From UHGV virus genome UHGV-2031204: 64,000 nucleotides of DNA. One strand, 5' to 3'. Position 1 is the first letter of the stretch; each line of letters begins with the position of its first letter. The DNA comes from a virus. The notes below the pieces were generated by a model. That model was not told the DNA's origin. It did not search any database and saw only the letters and a program-made list of their open reading frames with translations. A program made the translations under genes and the position numbers. Shown here one piece after another: positions 17,410-62,852 of this stretch.

Positions 17410-17448
17410 CAGATATATATTACCTAGGTGAGATTACACAGTAATCTC
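17410..17448 (+). promoter_or_regulatory. conserved promoter-like motif plus dyad (copy 1)
   Basis: CAGATATATATTACCTAGGTGAGA followed by palindrome GAGATTAC-ACA-GTAATCTC; immediately after terminator, before gene 17484. Confidence 0.5.
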
Positions 17449-17483
17449 TTTACGACTTGTTTATTACGTTTAGGAGAAATATC

Positions 17484-18125
17484 ATGAGCCGCATTAATTT
17501 AACTGATTTTGTTGATGGTGTTGTGTCTACGGATAAAGGTGTTGTTACGATGGTGGCACCGAATAGTAAAGTTGTTACTTTAAATCCGGTAGAACTGATT
17601 TCTATTTCTACCTGGTTGCGCTTACTTTCTGGTAAGAAACCTAAAGACCAAGCGAAGGGTGGCCTATTAGTTGGTACACGTGAGTTTGTTTTCAAAGACA
17701 TAACCCAAGATAAACTGGACAGCATTGCTAAAGAACTGAACGGCAAGCATAAAACTCGCGACATCGGGTGTGCCGAATATGACGGAGTAACGTACCATGC
17801 GTTTCTTGATAGTCACGTAGCATTGCGTGAAAAAGAAAATGGGATGTACGATTCAGTTTGTTTCTTTCACTTAATCGCACCAACAGAAAACGAAGCTGTG
17901 TATGAAACCGTTGAAAAATCGGCGGAAGCTGTTATGGAAACGGTGTCAGAACTTATAGAAGGGATGAAAAGAATCCCACGTGTGTTGAAAGTTACTGATG
18001 GGGCTTTCGATTGTTTTAAATTATTACCCCTAATAGCTAGTAAAGAATACGAAGATGAGAACACCTTCGGACTATTCGAAATTAGTCTTTCGGAAGCAGT
18101 TGTTACTTTCTTTGAAGATTTATGA
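17484..18125 (+). CDS. hypothetical protein (first gene after conserved promoter motif)
   Basis: ATG 17484 with AGGAGA RBS, downstream of motif at 17410-17448. Confidence 0.55.
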   Translation: MSRINLTDFVDGVVSTDKGVVTMVAPNSKVVTLNPVELISISTWLRLLSGKKPKDQAKGGLLVGTREFVFKDITQDKLDSIAKELNGKHKTRDIGCAEYDGVTYHAFLDSHVALREKENGMYDSVCFFHLIAPTENEAVYETVEKSAEAVMETVSELIEGMKRIPRVLKVTDGAFDCFKLLPLIASKEYEDENTFGLFEISLSEAVVTFFEDL

Positions 18126-18159: not shown

Positions 18160-18179
18160 CGACCTTTAGGAGAATAGAA

Positions 18180-24667: not shown

Positions 24668-24699
24668 ATTATGTCGTCCGTAACCTAAAGGATTTGTTA

Positions 24700-25500
24700 A
24701 TGAGTAATCTACTTACTTTCAGAATGTCTGGTCAAACGTTAATCCAAATCGACAAGTTCGAAGAAGAGAATTTTTCGAAACCGTCGAAGTTGTTAGAACG
24801 TTGCCTTAATGTTATTCCTGGTGGCGAACAACGCCAGTTGGACTACATCATGGCGTCCAGTGCTGACAAAACGATTTCTGTTATCTATACCGTAGACGGT
24901 GTACAGAATTGTCGCTTATTACCAATCGAAGAAAAAGGGACGTTAGGTCATTTGTTGTTCCTGCACGCGATCACAACCGCCGTGGTGTCTGGTGCTTTAG
25001 AAGCGCAATACGGCTTTGCTTATTGTTACTTCTATGCTCAGAAATTAGCTGCAGCGGTTGTTCCAGGGCAACAAGAAACCTATCCTCAGTATATTGAACG
25101 TATTCTCCCTTCACACTTTAGTGAGTCGGAAGACTACGACTTCAATGCGTTTCGTTTTACCGTGGTGGGTGAAGCCCGCGATCCTGAATACACAACAGCG
25201 GTTCGTGCGGTGGTGCGCTATTCTGTTATTTCTACAGACAGCGGTACATCAAATAACTTTAATGAAGTGTATCCGGTCTTGCAGTTAGGTCCTTATGTGA
25301 CTTTCAACAGCTATGTGCCATTCAGTTGCCAGCTTGTGGGTCCGCAGGATAACGATTCTATTCTCCCTGTTGCGGAAGAAAAGTCATTGTTTATTCGCGA
25401 ATCTGTAGAAGCTATTAGCGATAAGCGCTTTATGATTTCTTCGAAGACGGGCATTAACGATCCTGAAATCGCTGTAATGGATAAGATGCAAGGTCTGTAA
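24700..25500 (+). CDS. hypothetical protein
   Basis: ATG 24700 with AAAGGA RBS; ends at terminator 25507-25545. Confidence 0.55.
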   Translation: MSNLLTFRMSGQTLIQIDKFEEENFSKPSKLLERCLNVIPGGEQRQLDYIMASSADKTISVIYTVDGVQNCRLLPIEEKGTLGHLLFLHAITTAVVSGALEAQYGFAYCYFYAQKLAAAVVPGQQETYPQYIERILPSHFSESEDYDFNAFRFTVVGEARDPEYTTAVRAVVRYSVISTDSGTSNNFNEVYPVLQLGPYVTFNSYVPFSCQLVGPQDNDSILPVAEEKSLFIRESVEAISDKRFMISSKTGINDPEIAVMDKMQGL

Positions 25501-25506
25501 AAACTT

Positions 25507-25545
25507 CCCGTTACCTCTATGGGTAACGGGAATACCTTTTATTTA
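25507..25545 (+). terminator. probable rho-independent terminator
   Basis: CCCGTTACC/GGTAACGGG stem, interrupted T-rich tail. Confidence 0.5.
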
Positions 25546-25665
25546 TTCCTAAACGACACGCAGAAGTCATTTAACCGTTAAGACGACTAATTACCCTTTA
25601 AAAAGAAAATTGCGTCAGAATGCGTTTTAGAGCGTTCTAGAGGGTATATGGATTCAAAAAGATTT

Positions 25666-25704
25666 CAGATATATATTACCTAGGTGAGAGTTTACGTAAT
25701 ACTC
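25666..25704 (+). promoter_or_regulatory. conserved promoter-like motif plus dyad (copy 2)
   Basis: 24/24 identical core CAGATATATATTACCTAGGTGAGA, then near-palindrome GAGTTTACGTAATACTC; upstream of small membrane protein gene. Confidence 0.5.
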
Positions 25705-25735
25705 ATTTATCGAATACCTAATTAGGAGTTATATC

Positions 25736-25879
25736 ATGATTTCTGTAAAACACAAAAAAGCTATCTTCGCTGTTGTTATCGCTGTTGTTCTGGGTTGCCT
25801 GTATCTGGACATCGACAAAGGCTACGACACTTGCATCGACAACGGTAATTCCGTTGCACAGTGCACTGGTCGTGGTTAA
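25736..25879 (+). CDS. small single-pass membrane protein (47 aa), strongly codon-optimised
   Basis: AGGAG RBS, ATG 25736; hydrophobic helix AIFAVVIAVVLGCLYL; sits between conserved promoter motif and terminator; shares LYLD..K.Y motif with 62281-62478. Confidence 0.5.
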   Translation: MISVKHKKAIFAVVIAVVLGCLYLDIDKGYDTCIDNGNSVAQCTGRG

Positions 25880-25884
25880 TGTAT

Positions 25885-25917
25885 AAGGCACCTTCGGGTG
25901 CCCTTAATTTTTTTATT
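25885..25917 (+). terminator. rho-independent terminator
   Basis: GGCACC-TTCG-GGTGCC then TTAATTTTTTTATT. Confidence 0.7.
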
Positions 25918-25933
25918 AATTGGAGCATAAAAG

Positions 25934-26749
25934 ATGATTACCATTAAAGATTATTTTCCGCGTGGACTGAGCAATGAAAACTTCGTTCCAACTGAAGACA
26001 TTGCCATCGTAACAGAGTCTAGTGATAAGTCTTTTAAACTCTACTTGAGTACGGCAGCAGGAAAATCCACTCTTATCCTTCGCGAACCTGAAGTGATAAG
26101 CATCTGCTCGTTTGGGGGTGGTGTAGAAGGAACGATTAATTGGTTGAAATCCAGAATGCATCGTTTGCTTATCGTGAACACCGATCCTGTGATTCGTTTA
26201 CAGCAATTGAAATCGTTGAATGAAGTTATCGTCGGATTATTGGAACATGAAACGTTCGGTAATGCAGCGATTGCGGAAGAGATTAAATCTGTAGAACTAA
26301 TCGAGTGGAGTGATATCGAATACGAACGTGCTGCGTTATTCGCAATGTACGGTGACGATAATCCTGTTGTGTTTGCACAAACATTAGATAACGTTACAGT
26401 AACAGCGCGCGTATTGTTTGGCTTACAGCGTGTTGAGTTTGAACTGAAACACGTTTATGTAAGTAATACTCCAGAGATGGTGGAAACGTTGACTCGTGCG
26501 TTCGCTTACCCGTTAGACGGAGAATGGGAACAGCAGATTAATGAAGCGTTAGGCGCGATGCTGTTCTTAGCAGGCACACTAAGGAAAGAAGAGAAATTAG
26601 AAGGTCGTGTTTATCCAGAATACGATTTTGTTTGTGAAGAATGTGGAGCACAGTATCAAATACGTGTTCCTTTAACCGGCCTGACAATCCCGAAAGCCAA
26701 CGTGCAATGTAAGGAATGTGGCCATGTTCAATACGTAGCGACTAAATAA
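25934..26749 (+). CDS. hypothetical protein with C-terminal zinc-ribbon (CxxC...CxxC)
   Basis: CEECG...CKECG pair at C-terminus; GGAG RBS. Confidence 0.55.
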   Translation: MITIKDYFPRGLSNENFVPTEDIAIVTESSDKSFKLYLSTAAGKSTLILREPEVISICSFGGGVEGTINWLKSRMHRLLIVNTDPVIRLQQLKSLNEVIVGLLEHETFGNAAIAEEIKSVELIEWSDIEYERAALFAMYGDDNPVVFAQTLDNVTVTARVLFGLQRVEFELKHVYVSNTPEMVETLTRAFAYPLDGEWEQQINEALGAMLFLAGTLRKEEKLEGRVYPEYDFVCEECGAQYQIRVPLTGLTIPKANVQCKECGHVQYVATK

Positions 26750-26800: not shown

Positions 26801-26890
26801 CAAATTCAACAACTTGGATTAAATAAAAGGCTTAAAGCCACTAACAATCATCGAGTACAGATCTTCACCGAAAGGAGAAGTAACTACTAA
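26801..26890 (+). pseudogene. degenerate remnant of small-protein module (no start codon)
   Basis: Translates to ...QLGLNKRLKATNNHRVQIFTERRSNY, similar to C-terminus of 27047-27220 product, but no in-frame ATG/GTG. Confidence 0.3.
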
Positions 26891-27046
26891 ATAAAATAAA
26901 GGGGTGTGACAGCACCCCTTATCAAAGCTTTAACTTTTCGAAAAGAGAAGTTAAAGCAGGGTACGCTGTAGCACCAGCGTACCCTTTACAGCACCACCAC
27001 GTTTCCGTAGTGGATTTCTTTAATCACCCTACAAAGAGGGCTTACC

Positions 27047-27220
27047 ATGAACAATGGTTACTACTTTACTGACAAAATGCTTGCAGAACAGAGTGCAGCA
27101 AAGACCAATTTACAGCAACGTATCTACAAGTATAGTCAGCTCGGCATGGATAAACGGTTAAAACCGTCTACCAACCGTTTCACGCAGATATTCACCGAAA
27201 AGAGGAGTGAACACTACTAA
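27047..27220 (+). CDS. small protein (57 aa), member of tandem paralog module
   Basis: AGAGGG RBS; C-terminus ...TNRFTQIFTEKRSEHY parallels remnant at 26801-26890; below ORF-track size cutoff. Confidence 0.4.
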   Translation: MNNGYYFTDKMLAEQSAAKTNLQQRIYKYSQLGMDKRLKPSTNRFTQIFTEKRSEHY

Positions 27221-27445
27221 CAAATAAAGAGGAGGCGTGTCAGCGCCTCCCCTCCTCGTACAGTAACCTGCCGAGATGGTGGTCGTAGGTATAATAAAAA
27301 GGGGTGCACCACCACCCCTTTTCTTAGCTTTAACTTTTCCGAAGAGAAGTTAAAGCAGTAGAGACTGTTCCATCAGTCTCTACTGTACGGTGACAACGCA
27401 TAAAGTTGTTGACGTTTTTACAACATTACAAAAGGTAATGAAAAA

Positions 27446-27607
27446 TGAACGAATATCAAATACAGATGTTCAATACCGCGATGCGAAATCGTGAAAAACA
27501 AATTCAGTTTAACCAACGCATGGACGAATATGTTCGTCTCGGCCTCGTTGCGGCACCGAAAACGGTTAACAATCACAATGTTCACCAACCACCTGTAAGG
27601 AGATAAG
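27446..27607 (+). CDS. small protein (53 aa), diverged member of tandem paralog module
   Basis: AAAGG RBS; shares (Q/R)LG(L/M)...TxNNH block with neighbours; followed by hairpin. Confidence 0.35.
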
Positions 27608-27749
27608 TTACTAACTAATAAAGGGGGTGGCAGCAACACCCCCTACTTAGTTCAGTAGTTGTTTCCCGTTCATAATTAATAGCCTTCTGTTTTTTTTTGT
27701 TTTTCGAGACGCATAAGGGGTCATAAGGGGGAGCCGAAGCTCCCCAGAC

Positions 27750-29312
27750 TCAAAAGAGTTCGTCACCCATGCCGCCGGTAAATACGTTAATCGACGAGGC
27801 TGTTACAGTTTCTTCTTTATCACAATCCCATGGCAAAATGCCAACATCACGGAAAGGTATTACAGTATAATGATAAGCTTCTTTGGTATCAATAATGGTA
27901 CGGTGTTTACCGCGTTGTACTTCTAAATAGCTGTGTCCGCTGACGACACGTTTGTTAAAATACATCTCACCGTCAGCTTCGTTGTCTAAGCTAGAGCAGT
28001 TGTCGTAAAGACCACGACCAGGTAAGCTCTTACAGAAACTTGCTGGGTCGAGTGCTTTTAATTTTTTGCCTTCTGGTGAGATTTGGTGTGGTGCTAAGAG
28101 GAAACCACGATTACGTACCACTTGGATGTTTCGCGCGATACGATAAATTTCTTTAATGTCACTACCCGCAATACCGTTACCGTGCCCTGCTTTGCTGATA
28201 GTACCGAAATAGTCTCCGCGTATTCCAGCTACATGATAACCTCGACGTTTTAGATCTAAAATCAAATCATTCAAATAGTGAATTTTAAAATCGGAGTTTG
28301 TGTGTTTTTGGAAAATATACTCCCAACCGTTTGCCCGCATTTTACTACAGAGGTAATCTGACATTTGTGCATTGTGTAGCGCTTTTTCTTCGTCAGTTGC
28401 CGTTTCAGGTGCAACCATTACCGGAGCTGTACCTTCAAAGTGTCCGTAAAGTGCTTGATACGCGTAAGCCAAGTTAACATCTAATTCGTTTTCTAAACTT
28501 AAATCCAGAATAACCGGTTGTAAGTCACCTTTAACATTTGCCATCACCTTTTCTGGGGTGTTGAATACAGGAATGCTAATAGAGAGCAATAAACTGAATA
28601 ATGACTTACAGTTAAAGGGTAGTGCGGGCATTAGCCAGAGTTCTTCGGTGATCCCTTTGTTACAGCCAAGCATTTGGTTAATTGCTTTCCACCCCGTACG
28701 TAACCCATTACCTGCCGCTTTCTTACTGATAGAGTCGAATACATGTACGAAGGGTGCTTTATTGTCAGTAATCAATTCCCCTACCAGAGAAGGAATCTTA
28801 TTATGAGAGCGTTCACTGAACGTGGATAAGGTATCCTTAAGGTCGTTGAGCGCCGTTTGTAAATCAACACGCGTTTCAGTGCCGTTCAGTGCGCCTAACG
28901 TACGACCCAATTTTTGTTTCAGTTGTACGCCTTGAATAGCTTGACGTAACTGAAAGTAGTATTGTGCTACTTGGCGATTAAGATGCTCGATGCGTGCTTC
29001 TGGTTCTTCTGGAATATCATCTTCCAGGAATTTGGTAATCGTATCGTATAGAGGACGTATTTGCGTAGTGGCCAGTTTCAAACGTTTCATGACGTTTGTG
29101 TGGTCGTAAGGCATACCGCCGTCTATGATGGATGTGATGATATCCTTGATTTCGACGAGGGCGGCACGTTCGTCACCTTCTTCTGCGTAATCAGGAAGCT
29201 TAGCCTCTAACAGCACTTTTCTTATGATGTCGTGGTCCTTTTCAGGATCGGTCAGAAGACTTTCAGCGTATAATGTGGCTAAGGCGGTTATCAACATCAT
29301 TTTGTTATTCAT
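27750..29312 (-). CDS. hypothetical protein (520 aa) with hydrophobic N-terminus
   Basis: Long minus-strand ORF; N-terminal MNNKMMLITALATLYA; divergent from 29326 gene with 13 bp spacing. Confidence 0.55.
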   Translation of the reverse strand: MNNKMMLITALATLYAESLLTDPEKDHDIIRKVLLEAKLPDYAEEGDERAALVEIKDIITSIIDGGMPYDHTNVMKRLKLATTQIRPLYDTITKFLEDDIPEEPEARIEHLNRQVAQYYFQLRQAIQGVQLKQKLGRTLGALNGTETRVDLQTALNDLKDTLSTFSERSHNKIPSLVGELITDNKAPFVHVFDSISKKAAGNGLRTGWKAINQMLGCNKGITEELWLMPALPFNCKSLFSLLLSISIPVFNTPEKVMANVKGDLQPVILDLSLENELDVNLAYAYQALYGHFEGTAPVMVAPETATDEEKALHNAQMSDYLCSKMRANGWEYIFQKHTNSDFKIHYLNDLILDLKRRGYHVAGIRGDYFGTISKAGHGNGIAGSDIKEIYRIARNIQVVRNRGFLLAPHQISPEGKKLKALDPASFCKSLPGRGLYDNCSSLDNEADGEMYFNKRVVSGHSYLEVQRGKHRTIIDTKEAYHYTVIPFRDVGILPWDCDKEETVTASSINVFTGGMGDELF

Positions 29313-53188: not shown

Positions 53189-53226
53189 CAGATATATTTT
53201 ACTTAGGTGAGAGTTATGATTAACTC
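53189..53226 (+). promoter_or_regulatory. conserved promoter-like motif plus dyad (copy 3)
   Basis: CAGATATATTTTACTTAGGTGAGA then GAGTTATGATTAACTC; between terminator and HTH gene. Confidence 0.5.
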
Positions 53227-53262
53227 TTTACACCGACTTGTTAACCTAAAGGAGTATTTACA

Positions 53263-53622
53263 ATGGCTTACAATCACAATTCCATCGTTCTGGCAAAACG
53301 TAAATTCGGTCTTCACTTGTCTTACGTAATTCGTCATTTGACCACAAAAGACATTACCCAGCGTGAACTTGCCCAGCTTGCGAAAGTTTCACAACCTGTT
53401 ATCTCGTCTATTAAGAACGATCACTCAGAACGTTTAAGTTTACCGATTATGATGAAAGTTGCTGATGCGATTCGTCTGAAATACCAGATTAGTTTTAATT
53501 CCGTTAAGGGTCGTTGCTCAGTAACCGTTCACGTAGAGTCCGCGTTAGACTACGTTGCAAACACGTCCATTAAACGCACCACGAAGAATGTGCGTTTTAT
53601 CACTAACACCGCAACACACTAA
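53263..53622 (+). CDS. XRE-family helix-turn-helix DNA-binding protein
   Basis: ITQRELAQLAKVSQPVISSIKN matches the HTH_XRE pattern; first gene after motif and dyad at 53189-53226. Confidence 0.55.
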   Translation: MAYNHNSIVLAKRKFGLHLSYVIRHLTTKDITQRELAQLAKVSQPVISSIKNDHSERLSLPIMMKVADAIRLKYQISFNSVKGRCSVTVHVESALDYVANTSIKRTTKNVRFITNTATH

Positions 53623-54362: not shown

Positions 54363-54410
54363 ACAGCTTTAGCGTATTGTTTTGAGACGACCTTTTAAGG
54401 AGTAATTAAC

Positions 54411-56205: not shown

Positions 56206-56978
56206 TGCGCATAGTGGATATCCACGATTATCGTAATGACCATTTAGCAATTGGTGTGGACGGGAAAATGGTTTCACTAACCCGTGTACGGAAAGGGTTA
56301 TTGGAAAAGGACGTCATACGCGAGTCTGAAGACCCGACCTTTATCATTCTTTCGAACACGAATCAGCTACAAGGAATCTTCTCCGGTCGTGTCGATGGTA
56401 AGTTTTTCTACATGTCGGCAATCGTTGTGTTTGCGAAGAAGAAAATTAATTTCGCACAACTCAAACGTTTGTTAAAAGTGGAGATGTTTGATGTCACATA
56501 CCCTGCCAATGACCTAAAACGTCGTGACCAGTTAATGGTGTATTTGGGTATGCAGCCGACGTCCATCGACTATGACCTGACGTTTACTGAAGAACCCGAA
56601 GTTCGCACCGATTTACCTGATGTAGTTGATATTGAATCTCTAACGTTAGAAGAAACGTTTACGATCCCTAAGGTGGTTAATGTCAGTTTGGATACATACT
56701 GCCTGGGATTGTTAGCTATTGGGGCTGCTGAGGGGCTGTGCTGTCGTAAAGACGGTAAAGTTGAAGGTATCTTAGTCTATTCGAAAATCAACGAAAAGAC
56801 GTTTGCAACCGAAGGTTTCTTCTATAACGACTGTACATACGGGATTGCGCTCTTGACCACATACTACCGTATTGCGTATTTAAAGGGTGCATCCGTGCGT
56901 CTTACTTTTCCATACTCAGCACCTCCAGCAATGTCTGGTGTTGAAGTAGAAGCATTAACTGGCCATTTTATCTTTTAA
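56205..56978 (+). CDS. hypothetical protein
   Basis: 257 aa; start overlaps Dam stop. Confidence 0.55.
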   Translation: MRIVDIHDYRNDHLAIGVDGKMVSLTRVRKGLLEKDVIRESEDPTFIILSNTNQLQGIFSGRVDGKFFYMSAIVVFAKKKINFAQLKRLLKVEMFDVTYPANDLKRRDQLMVYLGMQPTSIDYDLTFTEEPEVRTDLPDVVDIESLTLEETFTIPKVVNVSLDTYCLGLLAIGAAEGLCCRKDGKVEGILVYSKINEKTFATEGFFYNDCTYGIALLTTYYRIAYLKGASVRLTFPYSAPPAMSGVEVEALTGHFIF

Positions 56979-61553: not shown

Positions 61554-62075
61554 GTGATAGCGCGACTTGCGAGTTGGTTTAAGCAACGTCGGGCAAAGGC
61601 GGTCGAATGGCCGCCTATTACGCACGATGAAAAGGTGATTGCTTTTCTGAATTATAACAAAGACTTGAAGAGATTGGGCGAAATAATGCACCTAAAGGAA
61701 ACCCAAGTCTTTGCTAAGATTTCAAGTAGTGCTTTACGTAAACAGGTAATTCCCCACCTATCCTTTTCAGGGCAGGTTTATGCAATAACCGCAGAGAAAT
61801 TTTTATCGATGGCGGGCAATGAAACCCCACACATACGGTTCTCGGTTACAGATTCATCTGATGCGGTCGGTACCGTTGATTTCGGACGATTCTATCGATG
61901 CATTAAAGACGTGGGCCATATACATGTTAAACGGGTATCAGAAACTTCTGTAGTGATTTATCACCGTACTGAGAATGATTTGTTAGGGCGTGTTATAACG
62001 TTAACAAATTTACATAGTTTTTACGTTGATTTACTCACTGAGTTTTATCCAGAACCATGGTGTTTTATACGATGA
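61554..62075 (+). CDS. hypothetical protein
   Basis: GTG start 61554 immediately after upstream stop. Confidence 0.5.
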   Translation: MIARLASWFKQRRAKAVEWPPITHDEKVIAFLNYNKDLKRLGEIMHLKETQVFAKISSSALRKQVIPHLSFSGQVYAITAEKFLSMAGNETPHIRFSVTDSSDAVGTVDFGRFYRCIKDVGHIHVKRVSETSVVIYHRTENDLLGRVITLTNLHSFYVDLLTEFYPEPWCFIR

Positions 62076-62284
62076 ACAGAGCTAATGGATATATCATCTC
62101 GGCAATTGTTTCAACCGTGCTGATTGTGACGATGTTGATGTTTTATGTCCGAGTGTCAGATGACTCACGCAAAGAAAGTCTTTATCGTGAATGTATGTCG
62201 GGAACGTCCGTGGACAATCCGCGTTACAGCGAATTAGTAATAGCGTGCACAGAACATGCTAAGCTAATGGGAGATGGTCGATGA
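62072..62284 (+). CDS. small membrane protein with Cys pair
   Basis: ATG 62072 (ATGA overlap); hydrophobic IISAIVSTVLIVTMLMFYV; LYREC...C motif related to 62281-62478. Confidence 0.45.
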   Translation: MNRANGYIISAIVSTVLIVTMLMFYVRVSDDSRKESLYRECMSGTSVDNPRYSELVIACTEHAKLMGDGR

Positions 62285-62478
62285 AAATTTGGTTACCGAT
62301 TGTAGCTTTTATTCTTATCGCAGGGGCACTAGCAAGTGCCGAGTGTGACAATCGTGTTTTAGAAAAGAAAAGCGAATTGTATCTGGATTGCATAAAGGAT
62401 TACACGCCAGGTACAGAGCTTCATGCGCAGGCTGTAAAAAGTTGTGCGTTGATGGCTGAATCGCAGACCCGTTCCTAA
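62281..62478 (+). CDS. small secreted or membrane protein with Cys motif
   Basis: N-terminal MKIWLPIVAFILIAGALASA; LYLDCIKDY motif shared with 25736-25879 product. Confidence 0.5.
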   Translation: MKIWLPIVAFILIAGALASAECDNRVLEKKSELYLDCIKDYTPGTELHAQAVKSCALMAESQTRS

Positions 62479-62852
62479 TGCGTATCTGGACGTTACAACT
62501 CGCTAAGTGGCGGTTAGCTAAGCAGAAAGGATTTCACGCAGTGGATATCACTGTGAAGTCAGGGCGAAAGGAACTCGCCCCCGACTGGGATTTCCTAATG
62601 GCGTACAAAGCCTCTGCCCAGGACGCTGTCGCTGAACGTGAGTACACGATAAAGTATTTGTACAAACTCGAACGACTGTTAGATACCGATGCCGAAGTTT
62701 TAGTGTCATTACTCAGACACGAAGACTTGGTTTTGATGTGTTATTGTCCCGCAGGTAAGTTTTGTCATCGCCACCTACTGGCAAGTAAACTTCAAGAGGT
62801 GGGAATGATGTTCGGTTTTGACGTTGAGTTATGTGGAGAATTAATCGAATGA
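62478..62852 (+). CDS. DUF488-like protein
   Basis: C-terminal LVLMCYCPAGKFCHRHLLA matches the recalled DUF488 LLC...CHR..LA signature; N-terminal IWT...AVDIT..SG fits the family N-terminal block. Confidence 0.45.
   Translation: MRIWTLQLAKWRLAKQKGFHAVDITVKSGRKELAPDWDFLMAYKASAQDAVAEREYTIKYLYKLERLLDTDAEVLVSLLRHEDLVLMCYCPAGKFCHRHLLASKLQEVGMMFGFDVELCGELIE

Follow-up and report, generated by a model that had tools for sequence, protein, structure and literature searches.

A conserved 47-residue putative membrane micro-protein behind an early-type promoter in a Seoul-like jumbo phage

An open reading frame (ORF) of the virus genome UHGV-2031204, at positions 25736–25879 (+ strand) of the 64,000-nucleotide (nt) stretch analyzed here (the window), encodes a 47-amino-acid (47-aa) micro-protein, MISVKHKKAIFAVVIAVVLGCLYLDIDKGYDTCIDNGNSVAQCTGRG, and the sequence leaves virtually no doubt that it is a real gene: a PHROG match, conservation, and codon bias all bear on it. 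The gene is part of a self-contained transcription unit consisting of a promoter, a leader, the 47-codon gene, and a terminator. A terminator-like hairpin of the preceding gene (24694–25500), located at 25505–25532 (+) with a 12-bp stem and 6 GC pairs, sets the cassette apart as its own unit. The 22-nt core CAGATATATATTACCTAGGTGA at 25666–25687 (+), a putative early promoter of the virion RNA polymerase with a T-rich stretch just upstream, lies 70 nt upstream of the ORF. Transcription of the cassette would start near 25685, with the predicted primary 5' end of the transcript ~10 nt downstream of TATATATTAC. The 5' leader (25688–25735, +) carries a TCGAAT(A) element and the Shine-Dalgarno sequence AGGAG (25724–25728), which is 7 nt from the ATG. 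Within the coding sequence, the codons of Cys33 and Cys43 occupy 25832–25834 and 25862–25864, and that of the non-conserved Cys21 occupies 25796–25798 (all +). An intrinsic terminator follows at 25885–25914 (+), with a GC-rich stem (AAGGCACC / GGTGCCCTT), a TTCG loop (UUCG in RNA), and a T-run. The ORF and its placement between a perfect copy of the promoter motif and a terminator had been proposed in an original prediction made from the DNA alone, and both hold in the sequence and its translation.

The micro-protein belongs, as judged by sequence, to a single-copy ortholog family. Its residues 1–47 align with positions 1–47 of the PHROG 8574 profile (E 3.4e-23), and it is the counterpart of SPN3US_0066 (YP_009153360.1) of the Salmonella phage SPN3US; all family members are annotated "hypothetical." Orthologs are found in Seoulvirus, Machinavirus, Erskinevirus, and Wellingtonvirus, and the family is limited to phages of Enterobacterales. 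A single-sequence search of 5.8 billion proteins returned only a 98% relative because the query is short, while the family profile recovered 32 clusters from the same set, all 45–51 aa long, in addition to thirteen orthologs from phage genomes. The conservation in related phages that the original prediction had suggested checking is therefore present, with a full-length profile match and these 32 clusters. PHROG 8574 members share with the window gene the place between a block of virion-protein genes and a divergent DnaB-like helicase gene as well as the same promoter motif, but they are only 43–60% identical to the window protein, in contrast to 98% for the closest metagenomic relative. The family alignment comprises 33 sequences, in which C33, G37, S39, C43, T44, G45, and R46 are invariant and Y30, N36, and G47 nearly so, defining the C-terminal signature C-x3-G-x-S-x3-C-T-G-R-[GS] that the window protein also carries. 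The codons of the invariant residues vary at their third positions (GGT/GGC/GGA/GGG, ACT/ACA/ACC, and CGT/CGC), and amino acids are kept through synonymous substitutions among orthologs that are 45–55% identical. Across the whole gene, pN/pS is 0.47, and it falls to 0.24 over the final 18 codons; synonymous sites are close to saturated.

When 1.84 billion representatives were searched exhaustively with the profile, only the PHROG 8574-type family and a few outliers came up. Three distant outliers of 45–51 aa keep Y-x2-C-x3-G-x-S-x3-C without the TGRG ending, and one of them, P0036, occupies the syntenic place beside a DnaB-like helicase gene on a jumbo-phage-like contig. Another, a metagenomic protein of 381 aa (P0033), contains four AY-x2-CIGNG-x-S-x2-QC units in tandem, preceded by a hydrophobic region at the N-terminus; this repetition suggests that the disulfide-type loop may be an autonomous extracytoplasmic mini-module. 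The family is already known to databases as one of hypothetical proteins, and the coupling to an early-type promoter, the record codon bias, and the C-terminal signature are new.

The window comes from a Seoul-like (SPN3US-related), phiKZ-type jumbo phage, an assignment made from sequence because virion-protein identity and gene order both agree with SPN3US. Genes around 25736–25879 encode virion proteins that are 66–69% identical at the protein level to those of SPN3US and of the Erwinia phages Asesino and phiEaH2, and the gene order of the window follows that of SPN3US at ~40–105 kb. No close relative was found among 50,697 deposited phage genomes. Relatives with ~80% nucleotide identity are instead circular "plasmids" of 222 kb, carried by E. 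coli strain 98232 and Enterobacter ludwigii; one relative locus compared with the window is NZ_CP173450.1, 88289–95101. In Salmonella and E. coli assemblies, at least 1000 contigs, many of them 220–238 kb long, carry the identical 47-aa protein. By these sequence searches, the clade is common in bacterial assemblies and absent from deposited phage genomes. Its abundance on bacterial contigs fits the Seoul-like "persistent virulent jumbo phages" described elsewhere (bioRxiv 10.1101/2024.12.31.630880).

The upstream motif is probably an early promoter for the virion RNA polymerase, by analogy with better-characterized jumbo phages. The window contains three copies of the CAGATATATATTACCTAGGTGA core, exact at 25666 and 17410 and with two mismatches at 53189, where shuffled sequences lead one to expect 0.00. 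The exact copy at 17410–17431 (+) precedes a 213-aa non-structural gene (17484–18125) and is orthologous to the SPN3US copy at 56293, and the variant at 53189–53210 (+) precedes the gene of a helix-turn-helix DNA-binding protein (53263–53622) and is orthologous to the SPN3US copy at 94238. In the 140 kb of SPN3US scanned (NC_027402.1), seven copies were found, all on the coding strand (4426, 15613, 56293, 65412, 72683, 94238, and 223276); six of the seven are followed ~70 nt further on by the start of a non-structural gene, and three are orthologous in position to the three window copies. The seventh (15613, a four-mismatch variant) lies 155 nt before a 617-aa gene with the RefSeq tag gp244, which is the number given for the SPN3US chimallin homologue (PMC9365700); neither Pfam nor PDB sequences confirmed this identity, and the link consists of gene number and protein size.

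The association of the motif with the micro-protein gene extends across relatives. An exact copy of the 22-mer precedes the ortholog, in the same orientation, in SPN3US, ChrisDB, pSal-SNUABM-04, Huxley, SPAsTU, and pEa_SNUABM_29, and it has 1–4 mismatches ahead of the ortholog in Asesino, E. coli 98232, and the Logan contig SRR6193081, as it does on the contigs of the distant relatives P0035 and P0036. Of 15 related phages examined, 9 have it, with up to four mismatches allowed, at the head of the transcription unit that includes the ortholog, and so do the two distant relatives. One or two small genes separate promoter and ortholog in most relatives, or others follow in the operon, whereas the window gene stands alone between promoter and terminator; the ortholog also comes first in SPN3US. 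Jumbo phages that encode RNA polymerases possess a conserved AT-rich motif near −10 with T-rich sequence upstream, which serves as the early promoter for the injected virion polymerase (PMC7598289 and PMC8244752). Early timing is proposed because the window motif matches this class and no sigma-70-like site was found upstream of the 47-aa gene. Like phiKZ/AR9-type early promoters, CAGATATATATTACCTAGGTGA is a conserved AT-rich element with an upstream T-rich stretch and without a sigma-70 signature, and it recurs in several coding-strand copies upstream of non-structural operons, both in the window and in the 140 kb of SPN3US. Its sequence, in contrast, is specific to the Seoul-like clade, and its start is predicted.

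The leader contains another recurrent element. A TCGAC(T/C)(A/T)T-type element (TCGAATAC in the window copy, 25709–25716) lies 10–25 nt upstream of the Shine-Dalgarno sequence, and most orthologs carry one, including those separated from their promoter by hundreds of bases. Further elements of this type precede other window genes at 17464–17472, 18160–18168, 53240–53248, and 54388–54396. The element could act as a further promoter, mark a processing site, or serve as a signal for translation.

The codon usage of the 47-aa gene is extreme. The E. coli optimal set accounts for 43 of its 46 codons, compared with 23.5 ± 3.3 expected from the synonymous usage of the window itself, and none of 200,000 simulated genes reached 43 or exceeded 38. 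Its optimal-codon fraction of 0.93 ranks first among the 69 window genes (mean 0.49, standard deviation 0.08), ahead of the major head protein (0.84) and an internal head protein (0.79). Orthologs also score high (0.70–0.89); the SPN3US ortholog reaches 0.71 compared to 0.53 ± 0.09 for its SPN3US neighbors. The near-exclusive use of optimal codons described in the original prediction is thus confirmed, and its further claim of high expression agrees with the expression signals, which are typical of an abundant product; the abundance itself is deduced from these signals. On this sequence evidence, high expression is likely.

The cassette is also strikingly conserved at the nucleotide level. The promoter-leader-gene-terminator block is ~97% identical to that of the E. 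coli 98232 element, whereas the flanking genes are only ~77% identical (window 25650–25949); the leader is nearly unchanged in this comparison, and the two ORFs differ at four positions, all synonymous. The terminator at 25885–25914 is identical in relatives, and the Huxley ortholog also has a matching hairpin 3' of the gene. This island of ~97% identity fits strong constraint on a highly expressed unit.

The protein architecture is that of a small single-helix membrane protein. Every family member has an N-terminus with a charge of +2 or +3, followed by an uncharged stretch of 16–20 residues with a mean Kyte-Doolittle hydropathy of 1.9–2.8, and then a polar tail. AlphaFold2, run on the 33-sequence alignment, gave a model with a pLDDT of 86.8 in which a helix at residues 4–35 is followed, after a turn formed by NGNS, by a second, short helix (40–44), and it suggests that Cys33 and Cys43 could pair as a disulfide. 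Small residues recur at positions 9, 12, 16, and 20, which form one helical face. The inferred topology divides the protein into a basic cytoplasmic end (residues 1–8), a membrane helix (~9–26), and a periplasmic tail (27–47). We consider the cytoplasmic N-terminus, the periplasmic tail, and the C33/C43 disulfide reasonably likely from the sequence because of the positive-inside rule and the invariant Cys pair. The single hydrophobic helix and Cys-bearing tail read from the DNA originally agree with both the hydropathy profile and the model, which makes an envelope location the natural reading. Database comparison offered no named relative: in Pfam, NCBIfam, PADLOC, and PDB sequences, none of the 33 members had a match that rose above noise, the best noise-level matches (MLANA, DUF6672, Thionin, and CRF receptor) all being far below the cut-offs, and Foldseek of the model against the PDB gave only E>3, which is uninformative for a 47-residue helix. 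Two known types of small Cys-containing or membrane-active proteins were considered and rejected. The twin CX9C (CHCH) helical hairpin does not apply, as the window protein has a single C-x9-C and a predicted second helix of only 5 residues, and a Hok/Gef-type membrane toxin found no Pfam or NCBIfam match.

These observations are best explained by an early, abundant inner-membrane micro-protein that acts on an envelope target, a reading to which we give about even chances as a whole. The virion RNA polymerase, injected with the genome, would read the conserved CAGATATATATTAC... promoter, so that transcription would begin right after infection. The strong ribosome-binding site and near-perfect codon adaptation would make the product abundant. 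The peptide would insert into the host inner membrane as a single-pass protein, with its basic N-terminus in the cytoplasm and its C-terminal tail of ~21 residues in the periplasm, where the Cys33-Cys43 disulfide would hold together a helix-turn(NGNS)-helix cap whose last residues are the invariant TGRG. The helix face of small residues, together with the cap, may bind an envelope component. Binding to a larger component of the envelope is how proteins of this kind act. The likeliest purpose would be to protect the infected cell from envelope damage or from the entry of more phage DNA, i.e., superinfection exclusion in the manner of T4 Imm; next in line would come a modulating effect on a host inner-membrane protein and a role in controlling lysis or persistence. 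An exclusion-type function is itself proposed by analogy, and we hold it tentatively. T4 Imm is longer than 47 aa and has two predicted helices. Like the proposed role, T4 Imm (and Sp) is a phage-encoded small early membrane protein of the inner membrane/periplasm, and Imm prevents superinfection by attaching to the tape measure protein of the incoming phage (bioRxiv 10.64898/2026.03.06.709160); it differs in having no sequence or profile similarity to the 47-aa protein, and it is this analogy from which exclusion is proposed here.

Several points weigh against this reading. The gene, its conservation, its promoter association, its codon bias, and its hydrophobic architecture are observed, whereas early timing, abundance, topology, disulfide, target, and role are what we infer from them, and it is from the example of phiKZ and AR9 that the promoter is classed as early. 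No sequence or fold relation to known exclusion proteins (T4 Imm/Sp, T5 Llp, Cor, and P22 Sie) was found in Pfam, PHROG, NCBIfam, PADLOC, or the PDB (Foldseek E>3). Recent recombination could explain part of the nucleotide conservation of the cassette because other islands of ~90–97% identity occur nearby. The second high-identity island relative to the E. coli 98232 element spans 27300–28200, and 26850–27300 is a non-homologous replacement. Finally, about half of the family has a Cys in a loose lipobox at the end of the hydrophobic stretch, while many other members have small residues there.

This last feature underlies the main rival, a cleaved secretory peptide or lipopeptide, which we regard as improbable though the most serious of the alternatives. 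Residues 1–20 would then be a signal peptide removed by signal peptidase II before Cys21 (VLG|C), or by signal peptidase I at AxA-like sites in other members, releasing a disulfide-looped peptide of 26–27 residues, lipid-anchored or soluble, into the periplasm or outer membrane, for example to mask a receptor as T5 Llp does. Consistent with this, the n-region, the 10–12-residue core, and the small residues at alignment positions 18–20 resemble a signal peptide; VLGC, ALAC, or AVAC occurs in 16 of 33 members and AFA, VSA, or SVA in others; residues 21–28 alternate between hydrophobic and polar in a strand-like manner; and the UniRef name of the Kwan ortholog is "Lipoprotein." The precedent is T5 Llp, an early lipoprotein that acts in superinfection exclusion by masking the receptor. 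Like T5 Llp and Cor-type lipoproteins, the window protein is small, early-type, putatively envelope-directed, and Cys-containing, with a loose lipobox (VLGC), but it lacks sequence similarity to them, its mature part would be only 27 residues, and about half of the family does without the lipobox Cys, the 16 members above being the only ones with a Cys in that column. The strict pattern [LVI][ASTVI][GAS]C is broken at most sites by Leu/Phe at −2 or Ala at −3; the window sequence V-L-G-C has Leu at −2 and fits the loose PROSITE-type pattern, yet its hydrophobic run continues beyond the Cys, as does that of the family, reaching 16–20 residues. AlphaFold2 also predicts with high confidence one unbroken helix at 4–35 across the putative cleavage site. 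A membrane-retained peptide could alternatively modulate a host inner-membrane protein in the manner of MgrB, reprogramming a signaling, transport, or division protein of the Enterobacterales envelope early in infection, which appears somewhat less likely still. E. coli MgrB is a 47-aa protein with one helix and two periplasmic Cys that represses the sensor kinase PhoQ, and other small regulators in bacterial membranes work in a similar way. The MgrB of E. coli and Salmonella and the window protein are alike in length, in the single helix (N-in/C-out, as predicted for the window protein), and in the Cys layout (a helix Cys, a second one 12 residues on, and a third 10–11 further), and both the face of small residues along the helix and the restriction of the family to phages of Enterobacterales are compatible with such a target. 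Homology to MgrB was rejected: none of the 33 members matched Pfam MgrB at E<=10, hhalign against an MgrB sequence aligned only the hydrophobic helix (probability 23%), and the loop NGNS...CTGRG is unrelated. The evidence also singles out no particular host target.

The carriage of these phages as ~222-kb circular "plasmids" and on at least 1000 Salmonella and E. coli contigs raises the prospect, which we rate as unlikely, that the micro-protein is a lysis-timing or persistence factor, i.e., an antiholin or lysis-inhibition peptide whose loop in the periplasm monitors or inhibits the holin or endolysin pathway and thereby contributes to long-term carriage. T4 rI, a small early membrane-tethered periplasmic antiholin, is a precedent, and lysis inhibition is discussed as a possible mechanism in the preprint on persistent jumbo phages (bioRxiv 10.1101/2024.12.31.630880). 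However, SPN3US and the Erwinia phages, which are ordinary lytic isolates, carry the gene too, no recognizable lysis gene is adjacent to it, and the protein has no similarity to RI, holins, or spanins beyond a weak match to an Rz-like spanin (phrog_4297, E 0.042) that is non-significant and covers only the hydrophobic segment. An Rz-like spanin was itself rejected, given this match, the tail of only 21 residues, the early-type promoter, and the lack of adjacent lysis genes. A non-protein role, either as a small regulatory RNA or as a leader peptide whose translation rather than product matters, is highly improbable. The unit is short (~230 nt), has a strong promoter and terminator, and is conserved at the nucleotide level in its leader and terminator, but the retention of amino acids through synonymous substitutions and the extreme codon adaptation argue for a protein; no Rfam match was found, and folding besides the terminator is unremarkable (z −1.9).

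A wider family of small Cys-motif envelope proteins was not supported. The original prediction treated the products of 25736–25879, 62072–62284, and 62281–62478 as three paralogous envelope proteins with a common motif and function, a model that we now consider very unlikely. Superinfection exclusion, lysis control, and host takeover, the functions that it suggested, stand as candidate roles. The two genes at 62 kb are real: they overlap, are syntenic, and are 72–97% conserved. The first, which we delimit at 62057–62284, encodes a 70/75-aa protein with an N-terminal hydrophobic helix, and the product of the second, at 62281–62478, has 65 aa, beginning with what looks like a cleavable signal peptide (ASA|E) and including the conserved C37 and C55 (C-x17-C). 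The two proteins align weakly with each other (E 0.013; hhalign probability 17%) and, on sequence, may be weak paralogs. All three proteins share an N-terminal hydrophobic segment and Cys, and the strings behind the proposed LYLDxxK.Y / LYxEC...C recurrence do exist, LYLDCIKDY in 62281–62478 and LYRECM...C in 62072–62284, but the recurrence is not above chance. BLASTP of the 47-aa against the 65-aa protein aligned only the 9-mers LYLDIDKGY/LYLDCIKDY with 6 shared residues (pairwise E 0.045) and detected nothing against the 62072–62284 protein, and when the 47-aa sequence was shuffled 200 times, 144 of the shuffled versions (72%) found a 6-of-9 match among the + strand ORFs of the window. The motif is lost in orthologs on both sides, and the family claim fails with it: LYLDIDK of the 47-aa protein is replaced by LSITVTQ, SYITLNK, GMMTINN, and similar strings, and orthologs of the 65-aa protein read ELYQDCIKDY. 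The family hidden Markov model matched only the hydrophobic segment of the 62057 ORF (E 0.028), with 62281–62478 not among the matches listed, and profile-profile alignment (hhalign) likewise covered only hydrophobic segments (probability 5%). The C-x3-G-x-S-x3-C-T-G-R signature is absent from both 62-kb proteins, Cys spacing differs (C-x9-C in the 47-aa family versus C-x17-C in the 65-aa protein), and the codon bias of the 62-kb genes is ordinary (0.38 and 0.45 versus 0.93). The distribution differs as well, as the 62-kb genes are confined to a ~225-kb isolate-borne clade, with no tblastn match of either protein in 50,697 phage records, whereas the 47-aa family spans several genera. Directly downstream of the 62-kb pair, 62478–62852 encodes a DUF488-N3a domain protein (Pfam E 8e-12), and the same order is found in the loci of two relatives.

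Other small genes lie around the cassette. Downstream, 25934–26749 encodes a 271-aa protein with a C-terminal CxxC...CxxC zinc ribbon (weak Pfam Zn_ribbon matches) and only a weak PHROG match (phrog_10180, E 2e-6); in most relatives, the micro-protein gene is followed not by this gene but by a different small gene (…FAEFLSNPR.KREWDNL…). Two tandem small Gln-rich ORFs of 53–57 aa (27047–27220 and 27445–27606) lie just before the divergent DnaB-like helicase gene. SPN3US has a pair of 48-aa Gln-rich ORFs at 67452–67598 and 67711–67857. Every ORF of the two pairs has a ...Q(F)NQR/QQR... stretch, spotted by eye.

The locus at 25736–25879 is a well-delimited hypothetical gene rather than a new system. 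If the reading as an early, abundant inner-membrane micro-protein is true, few early proteins of this widespread clade of nucleus-forming jumbo phages would probably be expressed as strongly as its product, which would act at the envelope and not at the phage nucleus. At the far end of what may be envisaged, with little probability attached, it could be a dedicated envelope "lock" that makes the infected or carrier cell refractory to genome entry or lysis and that acts as a determinant of long-term persistence in hundreds of Salmonella and E. coli isolates; in a more speculative variant of this idea, it acts on the membrane that encloses the injected genome in the early infection vesicle. The cassette of promoter, leader, and terminator is a candidate compact part for strong early expression in engineered jumbo phages. 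Clinical isolates of Salmonella and E. coli harbor these phages as episomes of ~222 kb, and a small, synthesizable, and easily expressed protein could open access to how infected cells are protected during long latent or persistent infection.

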